Origin: Carcharhinus longimanus
Lineage: Eukaryota
Length of the DNA stretch: 64,000 bases
Reading direction: 5' to 3'
Assembly: GCA_030264375.1 (NCBI GenBank)
Contig: JASCQW010000098.1
Location: 76,303,551 to 76,367,550 of the forward strand
The notes under the pieces are model-generated. The model searched no databases. It was not told the DNA's origin and saw nothing but the letters and a program-made list of their open reading frames with translations. Position numbers and translations under genes: made by a program. Shown here in pieces: positions 27,136-62,400 of this stretch. How positions within the stretch are numbered: position 1 is the stretch's first letter; each line of letters opens with the position of its first letter.

Positions 27136-27814
27136 ATGACAGCCTGTAAAATCTGCCTGTTTGACCAAGCTTTTGATCATCCAGAGCTCCCCCTCTGCAT
27201 TAGCGGTCTGGCAGTGGTGGCCAATTATATTCTCACCCCCCATACGGCTCCGTGAAGCACTAGGTCAGTATAAGCTCTTGTCATTGTCGCCTGTAATGAC
27301 AGAATTCCTAAAAATGGAACAAAGGAGAAATGTGGAGAAAACTGCAACTTCTTATTTTGAAGAGTTGATGTTCCTCCAGATGCTGAGGTAAATAAGGGCA
27401 TCTCTAAATGGAACTGAATGCCACCCTTTAGTTAAAACTCAGATAAAATCTGAAAGCAGAGTACTGCAGATGCTCAAAATCTGAAATAAAAACAGAAAAT
27501 GCTGGAAGTTATGATGGTTGAAAGGTCACAGACTTGAGACATTAACTATTTTTCCTGTGGTTTTTACTGTTTATATATATCTCAGTTAAAATTTGCTTGG
27601 AACTAGTTCTCCAACCAAGTCCTGCAGTCATCAAGGCGTTTGATAACTCGGACCTAAATGAGAAAGAGACTTGCTGGGTATCACAAGGAAAACAAAAACT
27701 TGTCACTCATTTTGTATACATGTCTTTAGCAGGCTTCTTGTAGTATTTCCATTTTCCAAGTTATGAGGTTATTGAAGGAAGGAGAAACTTAGCTTCAGGA
27801 TCCTCTCTGGCTTT

Positions 27815-33549: not shown

Positions 33550-33758
33550 GGATAATCTCAGTAGGTCTGGCAGTGTCTGTAAGGAGAGAAAAGAGCTGAT
33601 GTCCAGATGAGTCCAGATGATCTTTGTCAATGCTTTGACAAAGGGTCATATGGAGTTGAAGCATCAGTTCTTTTCTCCTTGCATATGCTTCCAGACTTGC
33701 TGAGATTTTCCAGCATTTTCTCTTTTGGTTTCAGATTCCAGCATCTGCAGTAATTTGC
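33550..33758. mobile_element. Palindromic Penelope-derived element with degenerate hammerhead motifs
   Basis: Inverted arms centred on ctttgtcaatgctttgacaaag. Same family as 59286-59497. Confidence 0.7.
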
Positions 33759-56857: not shown

Positions 56858-59285
56858 TTCCTTGATGGGCACAGGTCCTGTTTTCATAATCAAGTAATTA
56901 TTGCTTTAATTCCAACATTTGGGGGGAAGGGGGAGCAGGAAGAGAGAGATCCGGTGTGCCAAGATTGCGTCTTGGGAAATCTCAGATCCACAAACTCTAA
57001 CTTCTCGCCATTCATTTTTAAATAAATGGAAAATGCCCATGATTTTCCAAGAAGCACCTCCTATGAGAACCAGGCAAAATTACCTTATAGGTATCAAAAA
57101 GCCACCATGATTTATCTCGAGAAAGAAATCTCATTCTCTCTCACTGAAAAGCAACAGCCACTTCCTTACAGACTCCAGTTACGTTCATACAAGAAATTCT
57201 GGGATCAGGTCTCCTTAGGTTATACCTAGTGATGCATCTCCTGAGTCATCATAGCTTCCCAGTAAATCACCATAGAAGACTGACCATGTTACATTTTGTG
57301 CTATGCGGAGACTTATTAAAGCTGGAGGCATAGCACAGCAGTAGCCAACTGCACATCTTCTAAAAACTATTCTACTCTGAATGTAGAGTTAAGCATCAAG
57401 CAAAGCGCCTTCACCTACTCTACTCAAATTACATTTGGGGTGGATTGTTAAACAACATTTCTGTCACACATTTGGTTTTCCTGGCCCCCGCCCCCCCCCG
57501 CCCAGGAACCGACAACAANNNNNNNNNNNNNNNNNNNNNNNNNNNNNNNNNNNNNNNNNNNNNNNNNNNNNNNNNNNNNNNNNNNNNNNNNNNNNNNNNN
57601 NNNNNNNNNNNNNNNNNNNNNNNNNNNNNNNNNNNNNNNNNNNNNNNNNNNNNNNNNNNNNNNNNNNNNNNNNNNNNNNNNNNNNNNNNNNNNNNNNNNN
57701 NNNNNNNNNNNNNNNNNNNNNNNNNNNNNNNNNNNNNNNNNNNNNNNNNNNNNNNNNNNNNNNNNNNNNNNNNNNNNNNNNNNNNNNNNNNNNNNNNNNN
57801 NNNNNNNNNNNNNCATTTGGTTTTCCTCCCCCCCGCCCCCCCGGCCGATGAACCTTCAACAATATGTTCTCCCCGTTTAAATCTCTTTCCATGGCGATTC
57901 CTGGAATCCCGACAGGAATACAGGAAAAGATATTGCGGTATTTACCAGTGTGGCAAATCTTTTGCACATTCATAAAACAAGAGGAGCAAATAATATAAAA
58001 GTAACGGTTCAGTGACATTCAGGGTATTTGGCTGTGGTTCTAGTTCTTCTGAATCAAGGGCCACTTCTCTTGTATTGACATCTGTCGTAGCTGGCATTTT
58101 GGAATAACGATGTTTTATTAGGAGATTAAAGATGGCAATTCTAAAACTCAATACCCAAGTTTGTTTCTCAGAAATGATGCAACTGCAAAAAAATTCAAGC
58201 ATTTCTATACTCTTAATAGAACAAAAAGATCAATAAGTTGAACAAAGGGAGTGACAGCCCCTGGTGAGAAGGGGAAGGGATGGCCGGGGGGGGGGGGGGG
58301 GGGGGGGGGGTGGTGGAGCCGTGACACAATCTCAANNNNNNNNNNNNNNNNNNNNNNNNNNNNNNNNNNNNNNNNNNNNNNNNNNNNNNNNNNNNNNNNN
58401 NNNNNNNNNNNNNNNNNNNNNNNNNNNNNNNNNNNTCCCGCTGAGTGAGCCAGGGATGACGTTGCATCCCAGCTCCTGCAGCGCCCACTGAACACAGAAG
58501 ACCTACAATGTACCAGTGGACACTACATGCTCCCTTCCCAGGAACACCCGGCCATGAGTACAGCCACAGTCAAGGGACCAATGGCCAGATTAATTAACAC
58601 ACCCACTCTCCCCTCAATTGCCTGCTGCCTGGACCTATTGATGGCCACCTGGGCCACGCCCAGGGGCAGGCTTACAAGGAGGTCCTTCCTCACTCACACT
58701 GCGCGTGTACACACACGAGACATGCACACACACCTGGGTGACCAAAGAACAGGAGCGTGGAGCTGAAGCCCCTTCAAATAGTGAAGAGGAGGCTGCAAGC
58801 TTGACTAATCTACATACACGTGGAACAGGGAAAACACATGTGGCTTGGGAGCCTGTGAATCTCTTTAACCTTTGATTGCACAGCACTGCTGCATGTTTCA
58901 TTTCTACATATGCTTTTTCATTTTAGAATGAGGAACTCTAACCAGAGTCTGAAAGAATACAATACCAGCATTTTCCAAGTAAACGGTTCAGGGTAACTTC
59001 ACTGATTCTATTGTCCCAGTAGGGGTCACACTTTAAATCTAATGGGATGCCATTTCAGAGGATCTATGTTCAGGGTGTAGCCATATTTCCAACCCACACT
59101 CCCTTGGAGGGCAGGACCCATTTAAAATACAGGATGGCTGTGAATTGATCTTGAAATGCGACCCTGTATTTCATTCTGAACCTTCTATGACTGCTTCCTT
59201 AACAGTCCAATTCTGTAAACTGCCATATCCCACAGGGATCAATGTCTCTATACTACTTCCCAATACAAAAACAAGCTCAATATTA

Positions 59286-59497
59286 AAATAAAAGTGAATT
59301 ATTGCAGATGCTGAAATCCAAAACCAAAAGAAAAAATGCTGGAAAATCTCAGCAGATCTAGTAGTATTTGTAAGGAGAGAAAAGAGCTGACGTTTCCATC
59401 CAGATGACCTTTGTCAAAGCTCTGGGTCATCTGGACTCAAAACGTCAGCTTTTCTCTCCTTACAGATATCGCCAGACCAGCTGAGATTTTCAAGCAT
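59286..59497. mobile_element. Palindromic Penelope-derived element
   Basis: Inverted arms atgctggaaaatctcagc...gtaaggagagaaaagagctgacg / cgtcagcttttctctccttac...gctgagattttcaagcat. Confidence 0.78.
59383..59423 (-). ncRNA. Minimal hammerhead ribozyme motif with U3-A8 variant core
   Basis: On -: AGAGCT-TTGACAA-aggtcatctggatg-GAAA-CG-TC-AGCTCT. Perfect 6-bp stem I, ACGT palindromic stem III and GUC triplet. Confidence 0.6.
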
Positions 59498-62400
59498 GAT
59501 ATTAACATTTCCACAAATTATAAATGCAGATTGACTCTTATACAAGTACCACTAGCAGTCAGTATTTCCATTGCATATATTACGTAGAATTAAACTACCT
59601 TCCTGCAAATATTTCTTAGGCCAGGATAGAAAGATTAGTGCCAATGTTGTGCATCTGCACAACTGACTAGGGGAATCGTGCCTGCTGAAATACAGATTGG
59701 AAGATCCCACGGCTGTCTCCCTCGATTTTCCAATGTGCTGATCCCAGTCAGCAAGACCCCAGCAATCAATCATGCAGTTGGCCATCCTGACCCATCATCT
59801 TCCCGCATGCAATCCCACATTTTATACTGTCAGGACAGACACACCATCTTTTCCAATAATGCGCATTTATCTGATTATCAAGAGCCACTCAAAAGCCATG
59901 GTGATCCTTTATATTTATTTTTCTTTCAGGAGTTAATCATACATCCAAATTATTTTCATTATGGTGGTTATTTGAAAATTGACAAGAAATTCATCTTAAA
60001 ACTAGAAGCTGAAGTGGGGAACATTTTATCAGTGTATTTTTCCCTTAATTACTTACTACTTTAAAACTCTCTAATGTCACTCAGCATTGAGTAACTGGGC
60101 AAAGATGTCCTTGTCAAAGTGCTCAGAGAAAATGGCAGCCAAAAGCAGAGTCTGATGGCTGCACGTCACCAAACATTAACGTGCATCAGTCACATGTGAC
60201 CTTAGGTTGTAATTTTTAAAAAACATTTTAAAATTTATCCCATGACTTGAAGATATGAATGGTAAACATCATACTTCCCAATTACACTACACAGTAATAT
60301 AAAATACACCAGTGGATCATCACTAAAAGAATCATTGAGTTATTACCAGAAATGAAGCTAAGGATAAACAAGTAATCTTTCAGAAACCTGTGCCAGTTTT
60401 TTGCTACAGCAATCTATTGCCACTGACCTGCACTCCCTAGAGAGCAGAGTCTTTTTCCACGTTGTCCGTTAGAAGATGCAACGTCTGCATCATCCCCTGA
60501 CCAGCCAAGCACTGAAGATCCAATAACCTTCTGAATAAAGGCATTTCTCTTCATTCTGACCATCGGTGATTAAGTTGACATTGTTATTAACTCGTTTTTG
60601 ACTCAACCAGGGAAAATGGTTACGATCGCTATCAAAACCCTCAAGTGTTTTTAAAACTCTGTAGTAAGTTTTGTCTTAGTTTTCTCTATCCTAATGGAAA
60701 GAGTCCTGGTATTTCAATTCTTGCAATTATGATTTCCCATCTCTTGGGTAATCCTAGTGAATCNNNNNNNNNNNNNNNNNNNNNNNNNNNNNNNNNNNNN
60801 NNNNNNNNNNNNNNNNNNNNNNNNNNNNNNNNNNNNNNNNNNNNNNNNNNNNNNNNNNNNNNNAATCCTAGTGAATCTACGCTATATTGTTTTTATAGTT
60901 TCAATGTGTTTGCTATAATATGTACAAACCCATACCTTTGCTGCAACTATGACCTTGTTTAAATTCAGAGGTAGCGGGAGAGGGGTTGCATGGTCCATTT
61001 GCCAGTGGGCCAATTGAGGGTCTGAAGCAGTCAATTAACTGCCCTCCCTCCTGCTGCCACTGGGCTATTACTTGTTTGTGGGGGCGGGGGGTGAACTACC
61101 AAGTGTCCAGGCTGCCTCCTTTTTAGACTTGTGTGCCAATCAAAAGTCCACCCTCACCTTTATAAACCTGATCCTCCATCCCCTCACTGGGGTCTGCCTG
61201 CCTGGCCTCAGCAAGATCCCAGGTTTATGTCTCAGTTCCATCACTGTCCCCCCCCTTCTGGGCTGCCTGTAATGCCAGCAGTGGCCCAGCAGGGTGTTGC
61301 GACAACAAGACAGCCACCAGCTTCCTGCTCCCATGATAGGGCTTTGATTCAGATTAACAGCCAAAGAGGATGCAGCCTCACCCACCCAAGATAAAATTCA
61401 GCCCACGTTAAATATATCCCTATTTACAAAAACCAAAAGTGCCGTTGAAATTTTTTTTTGTAACATCTATTTCAGCCCTACAAAAGCCCCACCCAAACTA
61501 TTTCATTCCTCTAACTACAGTTCTGTGCATCGTTCCCCCTTTCTGTCATTGGATCCCATCCTCCCAACCACCAAGCTCTGGAATTACCTCCTTAAATCCT
61601 TCAGTCCCTCTATCACCTTCCCCACCTTAACAATCACCTCTGAACAAGGCTTCGATCATCCTGGTAATGTTTGTTGTGAAATGTTGGGGGATGGTTTTCT
61701 GCATTTCAAATGCTTTGTGAATATAATTTTCCTCATCAAGACTTTAAAGCCATTGCCAAATGGACAAAAGCTCTCTTTGCTCCTTCGTCATTTTGCAATA
61801 AAGAAAAACTGTCAAAGGTCCAGTAGCTTTATTCTACAGGATTGAGCTCCATATCTTAACATTTTACTTTTGGCGAGGTAATTGGATTGGAAAAAAAAAC
61901 ACACGTATTGCCGTAAATTCTTCACTTTTATCACATTCACAATCACCCCCTTGTAAGATACTCCCATCTCCAGATGTGGAGGAGCTAAAGCTTAGTGGTC
62001 ATTGTACTTGCAGCCAGCAAACCCATATGTTCAAATCCCACAAGCAGATAGCTGATTTCAATATACTCTTGCCATCTGCCGTCTGGCAACAGATATGATA
62101 AGCATGAAAATGGCTCTAACCTAACTGATTCACTAATATCTTCCAGTAGAGGGAGCATGCTATCCCCAAGTGTGACTCCAGTCCCAGACCATGGGGTGGG
62201 GCTTTAATGCCCATAGTAACAACTGCCAGTGCTGCCATTTTGCAACAATATGATGCATCACCAATAGTTGCAGACATGATACAAGGTGTAGTCTAAGTGC
62301 ATTATATTGCTTCAGGGGATTTGTTACAAATAATATGTATTTTATTAGAATCACAATGTTCATCCCAACACAAAATTGCTCTTTCTGCAATTCCCAGAGG

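Follow-up and report, generated by a model that had tools for sequence, protein, structure and literature searches.

The window, a 64,000-nt stretch of the Carcharhinus longimanus genome, contains at positions 59288-59497 what is very probably the hammerhead-carrying 3′ end of an abundant Penelope-like element, inserted head-to-head long ago; the family core is U3-A8, and this copy is damaged and likely inert. The U3-A8 motif is real and represents the family consensus, and it is a known variant in a known layout. The ribozyme aspect is thus ordinary, as both the core variant and the layout have been published. The genome does offer a natural experiment, in that U3-A8 and C3-G8 subfamilies of the same element are present together, each in hundreds to thousands of copies, and the subfamily junctions tell which RNA was copied. 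This makes two matters testable: the role of a hammerhead if uncleaved RNA is the template, and the origin of head-to-head palindromes. The most useful part is the junction statistics combined with the paired subfamilies, with copies that start at the 5′ edge of the ribozyme, 30 bases past a TATA box.

The insertion and its hammerhead motif

The features are as follows, with distances counted from U3 of the hammerhead core.

59288..59497: whole insertion, a head-to-head pair of Penelope-like element 3′ ends, defined by aligning it to the second copy in the window and 28 others in the genome, by inverted repeat I1/I13 and by the arm ends
59288..59421, minus strand: long-tail arm, which starts at the central AGCT, takes in the hammerhead and the full tail and ends at about +131; 88% identical to the family majority
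59418..59497, plus strand: short-tail arm, ending at about +83 without the 30-40-nt tail; 90% identical to the family majority
59383..59423, minus strand: minimal type I hammerhead motif with a U3-A8 core and damaged stem II, from sequence, variant-hammerhead scan and forced fold
59411..59417, minus strand: core box TTGACAA, identical to the family consensus, with U3 at 59417 and A8 at 59412
59397..59409, minus strand: damaged stem II, each strand one base short, with position 11.1 read as G and the G10.1-C11.1 pair lost
59389..59396, minus strand: GAAAC-GTC, comprising G12 to A15.1, the palindromic ACGT in the place of stem III and the GUC triplet (numbering as in PMC4209133)
Between 59389 and 59388, minus strand: predicted cut site
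59418..59421: self-complementary AGCT at the palindrome centre; it supplies the 5′ strand of stem I and is where family copies most often have their 5′ boundary
59422..59450, plus strand: degenerate second hammerhead, with the core down to two bases, stem II intact (59424-59438) and G12 changed to A
59280..59289, plus strand: left copy of a candidate target-site duplication, overlapping the first two bases of the element
59499..59508, plus strand: right copy of the candidate target-site duplication
33551..33755, minus strand: second palindromic family copy, with 79% identity, TTGACAA on each of its arms and a flanking duplication of 13 bp

Read directly, the minus strand from 59423 to 59383 consists of AGAGCT, TTGACAA, a 14-nt spacer, GAAA, CGTC and AGCTCT, which is the layout given by a first-pass annotation of this DNA. 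When both strands of the 64-kb window were scanned for variant hammerheads, the motif was the sole match. A family pattern that permits all four states of positions 3 and 8 has 1,486 matches in the genome of 2.68 Gb, against none for the reversed pattern used as a control. Because of these counts and the single match in the window, the motif is not attributed to chance. Rfam reports no hammerhead family in a scan of 57000-62000 with E values up to 10. Nine weak Rfam matches in the same region, to hairpin-type microRNA models and others, were taken as chance hairpin matches.

The annotation had given the element an extent of 59383..59451. The motif does lie there, but the element is wider and forms an imperfect palindrome (59288-59497) centred on AGCT. 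Its candidate flanking duplication is 10 bp with one mismatch.

State of the copy

Compared with the 28 other copies and the second window copy, stem II of the minus arm is one base short on each strand and has a G at 11.1; family contigs show the two extra stem II bases, at 59398 and 59407. Due to the missing bases and the G at 11.1, which leaves G opposite G, the G10.1-C11.1 pair is lost, and a forced hammerhead shape has a helix of only 3 bp in stem II. The plus arm keeps GGGTC-atctg-GACTC (59424-59438) and has lost the core box, as the annotation had noted. Six core bases are deleted, and G12 is lost too, reading A (AAAAC for GAAAC, 59439-59443). The perfect 6-bp stem I also described there is present but is particular to this copy and arises because the opposite arm has C at its position 3; the family form is a 4-bp AGCT/AGCT stem.

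The palindromic RNA is predicted to form a hairpin of −95.5 kcal/mol (plus) or −100.1 kcal/mol (minus), compared with −70.3 kcal/mol when the hammerhead is imposed. By these modelled energies, the palindrome fold beats the hammerhead fold in this copy by about 30 kcal/mol. This preference, and lesions at conserved positions in both arms, speak against the earlier idea of a working ribozyme on each strand.

The insertion is found at the same site in contigs of three other organisms, each contig covering only part of the stretch; one of the runs, X15, is possibly the source sample itself. Among the 22 runs listed, all represented by contigs, none is an RNA run. In the element parts covered there is no gap relative to the window, and hence the stem II and core deletions are old and common to the other organisms.

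The autonomous parent element

A protein search gave 11,540 candidates, of which 150 were scored, and 29 endonuclease loci were examined, with one short contig left out. The hammerhead arm is found downstream of the endonuclease in 21 of the 29 loci, and N gaps are present in seven of the other eight. The arm is thus the end of a once autonomous Penelope-like element. Where the core is readable at these loci, T3 is present in 20 of 20 and A8 in 18 of 20, with no C3-G8 among the 20. The assignment as a Penelope-type minimal hammerhead made in the first-pass annotation is supported.

At two loci (L044 and L054), a pyrimidine-rich repeat lies upstream of the arm, followed by a decayed frame with endonuclease and reverse transcriptase-like parts, the latter recognized by eye. 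The endonuclease piece matches Pfam GIY-YIG with an E value of 0.0039, which is below the curated cut-off, and a Pfam match is absent in seven of eight decayed frames; the reverse transcriptase-like part matches no Pfam model. In the Atlas, the neighbouring clusters, at 0.95-0.96, are GIY-YIG and HTH_animal ones, where the families are represented on 15-40% of members. Linked reverse transcriptase and C-terminal GIY-YIG coding, characteristic of EN+ Penelope-like elements, is displayed by the family and is not found in the 59288-59497 stub. A Cys-rich CX2-5CxxC linker motif is present before GIY-YIG in L044 and L180. The linker fits the description of Neptune/Nematis (PMC8557442) and may point to Neptune membership. 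In contrast to published EN+ Penelope-like elements, no intact full-length element or intact open reading frame was recovered among the loci examined.

Two side features of these sequences were observed. The family tail past the cut site has two pyrimidine-tract-plus-AG stretches that resemble splice acceptors, the first followed by ATG. At L094:7079-8187, decayed LINE-like reverse transcriptase fragments, recognized by eye, are situated upstream of a truncated Penelope-like copy.

Copy junctions and the RNA template

An anchor placed downstream of the cut site gave 2,654 genomic matches. The first 89 of 100 listed were taken, and removal of 14 with N at the junction left 75 clean copies. These comprise 19 inverted copies, 19 that continue into the upstream repeat and 37 simple stubs; the arms of the inverted copies end at many different points. 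The 5′ start falls within −7 to −2 of U3 in 28 of the 75 copies, and in 16 it coincides with the A of AGCT. Among the 75, not one of the uninverted copies starts at the cut site, and two inverted copies start there roughly. Perfect 22-nt palindromes are centred before the core in 102 cases and at the cut site in two, and this argues that uncleaved RNA is the likely template.

In the U3-A8 family a TATA box starts 30 nt before the A of AGCT. Five copies of the sister subfamily described below have TATA at −33 to −35 from U3 with a different intervening sequence, and palindromic copies are without a TATA box. The boundary has another possible explanation, a doubtful one, in which AGCT is a splice acceptor or a hot spot for fold-back and self-priming instead of a transcription start. 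AGCT is self-complementary, a pyrimidine tract ending in AG lies upstream of the boundary, and the intron of Drosophila virilis Penelope is reported to end at helix I (PMC4209133). However, the stubs retain the AG, and those that start at AGCT have no upstream exon sequence in common (11 + 14 candidates, about four of which are misclassified pLTR copies). The TATA spacing of ∼30 nt in both subfamilies, despite the different sequence between, also argues for a transcription start. A spliced upstream exon at the boundary was rejected for lack of a common upstream sequence. The extra upstream G that would be a cap signature is not seen in stubs starting at AGCT (5 of 25 candidates), a point against the transcription start.

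Among 30 palindromic copies, 29 have a long arm (+129 to +147) paired with a short arm (+79 to +104), with modes about 36 nt apart; the 30 were found by a query of the same long/short shape. Flanking repeats scoring 9 or more, candidate target-site duplications, accompany 15 of the 30. An inverted 5′-truncated repeat with a 30-40-bp tail on one end, as in EN+ Penelope-like elements, is present. Head-to-tail monomers bounded by cleavage sites, as in non-LTR retrozymes, were not found among the copies analysed.

The U3-A8 core and its C3-G8 sister subfamily

A hand count of the first 100 listed of the 1,486 family matches gave 94 T3-A8, three C3-A8, three T3-G8 and no C3-G8. Only three of the 1,486 are C3-G8, and TTGACAA is confirmed as the consensus. 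A looser pattern has 2,740 matches, of which the first 100 were classified. Those ending in GTC comprise 59 T3-A8 and three T3-G8; those ending in GTT comprise 21 C3-G8, 12 C3-A8, four T3-A8 and one T3-G8. The GTT-type copies represent a sister subfamily (L209-L238) that displays a canonical C3-G8 core, a GUU triplet and, at stem III, a 6-nt palindrome AACGTT; its 5′ boundary is likewise AGCT. Of its 438 matches, the first 100 listed comprise 65 C3-G8, 30 C3-A8, four T3-G8 and one T3-A8.

G8 falls within a CpG. In the sister subfamily, positions 7-8 read TG in ∼30 and CA in ∼30 of the 100 listed copies, which is the symmetric mark of CpG decay. In the U3-A8 family, TG is found at these positions in none of the 100 listed, and A8 was thus already in the master element. 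Decay after insertion is therefore ruled out as the source of T3 and A8: it is seen in the sister subfamily, which retains C3-G8, and is absent from the U3-A8 family. The view in the first-pass annotation of a core fixed as T3 with A8 is supported, and the co-change is a single evolutionary event in the C. longimanus genome.

The majority sequences of the two subfamilies differ at about 13 of 100 positions. Of the 13 core positions, however, only 3 and 8 differ, and stem II is unchanged. Elsewhere in the motif, the subfamilies differ at H17, at two bases of loop II and at a wobble-compatible position of stem I; a further difference, at 16.2, is only apparent and reflects CpG decay in the majority sequence. 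On sequence grounds, this pattern favours a compensated, selected U3-A8 core.

It is nevertheless conceivable, if unlikely, that U3-A8 is a neutral relic, in which a master element lost ribozyme function by CpG decay of G8 to A and a chance change of C3 to T, and was amplified since retrotransposition needs no cleavage. The templates are almost all uncleaved, hammerhead mutants are reported to be without effect on insertion in vitro (PMC11167929), and there is just one co-change event in this genome. A relic would not readily account for the unchanged remainder of the core and stem II in subfamilies so far diverged, nor for the confinement of other changes to loop II, H17 and the wobble-compatible stem I site. 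In addition, unrelated elements show this swap as well (PMC4209133; PMC3088659). Selection for a compensated core is thus the preferred reading.

The family consensus displays the minimal type I core: the 3-8 pair, U4, G5, A6 and A9, G12, A13 and A14, A15.1-U16.1 and H17, together with G10.1-C11.1 and a palindromic 15.2-16.2. Constrained folds of real copies give a 4-bp stem I and a 5-bp stem II. T3-A8 is found together with intact C11.1, G12 and G16.2 in 28 of 100 listed matches. Most genomic copies are without G12, C11.1 or G16.2 because the motif has two CpG sites (C11.1-G12 and 15.2-16.2). In the best fold of monomers from both subfamilies (L038, L045, L161 and L170), the core box pairs with the cleavage-site region, which might represent an off state.

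Relation to known hammerheads and Penelope-like elements

The non-canonical core is not novel, being published both for natural hammerheads and for Penelope-like elements. Covariation to U3-A8 in natural hammerheads, stated to be active in vitro, was described by Perreault et al. (2011; PMC3088659). It is the same covariation as in the shark family, and the passage describing it concerns neither this retrotransposon family nor motifs that lack helix III. Cercyon elements of Schistosoma mansoni carry U3-A8 in about 1,300 of their minimal hammerheads (Cervera and De la Peña, 2014; PMC4209133). The same work reports that motifs occur in opposite-strand pairs and that even dimers have low activity.

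The shark motif resembles these metazoan Penelope minimal hammerheads in being type I, with a 4-bp helix I, an extra base between A9 and 10.1 and, as the family form, G10.1-C11.1. Both also lack helix III, are palindromic at 15.2-16.2, number more than a thousand copies with U3-A8 and include opposite-strand pairs (PMC4209133). The shark motif differs in host and element family, in a helix II of 5 bp versus 7-8 bp and in having a C3-G8 sister subfamily in the same genome.

Penelope-like elements as a rule have inverted ends, tails and palindromic junctions (PMC3846280; PMC8557442). With the EN+ elements described in these sources, the family shares head-to-head inverted ends, a tail on one arm, short target duplications (candidates here), a TATA box in the pLTR and GIY-YIG at the C-terminus. 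Poseidon PAc of Anolis carolinensis similarly has two 3′ end classes, priming on both strands, an uncleaved template and a hammerhead located close to the end of the pLTR (Frangieh et al., 2024; PMC11167929). PAc, however, has a C3-G8 core and the start of its open reading frame in stem II, and its mechanism was established in vitro, whereas in the shark it is inferred from genomic junctions. Animal non-LTR retrozymes are also short, non-coding, hammerhead-bearing sequences related to pLTRs (bioRxiv 10.64898/2026.07.22.740005). Retrozymes are described as head-to-tail and bounded by cleavage, whereas the shark copies are single or head-to-head and start before the core. No report of the U3-A8 family was found in the open literature that was searched.

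A proposed mechanism

A TATA promoter in the terminal repeat would make transcription begin with the AGCT at the 5′ side of stem I, a start site to which the genomic junctions point. The element protein would then nick both target strands, and reverse transcription of uncleaved RNA would be primed internally, at two sites separated by about 36 nt. Priming on both strands, two start sites and an uncleaved template are reported for the anole element PAc in vitro (PMC11167929). The two cDNAs would join head-to-head, via the self-complementary AGCT when both are full length. The U3-A8 hammerhead of the master element would likely have been a ribozyme of weak activity, dependent on dimers or on protein, that selection maintained; in palindromic stubs, the hammerhead would be locked in a hairpin and would have decayed.

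A published alternative for the formation of head-to-head palindromes is self-priming on an antisense template (Arkhipova et al., PMC3846280). It is tentatively hypothesized here that the 5′ AGCT explains the palindromes without an antisense template. By this hypothesis, the TATA promoter puts the hammerhead at the first bases of the RNA, selection keeps U3-A8 catalytic and only uncut RNA integrates, so that the ribozyme might act as a switch which, by decapping, directs transcripts to translation, to decay or to retrotransposition.

The first-pass annotation had instead proposed a distinct non-autonomous palindromic family of ∼200 bp, which would be copied whole and have functional ribozymes on both strands. 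This is highly improbable: the 102 perfect central palindromes with one centre, the similar arm lengths in 29 of 30 palindromic copies and the large excess of short copies over coding ones, which trans mobilization could allow, speak for it, but the same arm terminates elements coding for reverse transcriptase and GIY-YIG, inversion is seen in just 19 of 75 copies, whose inverted arms have variable break points, the TATA box is missing from palindromes, the hairpin costs the hammerhead fold about 30 kcal/mol, and both arms of the 59288-59497 copy are damaged.

Other sequences in the window

A fragment of a more distant relative is found at 27462-27545; it is internally deleted and displays 80% identity over 46 nt. 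A 29-nt direct repeat is present at 57469-57497 and 57814-57842, either side of an assembly gap, and is probably an assembly artefact.
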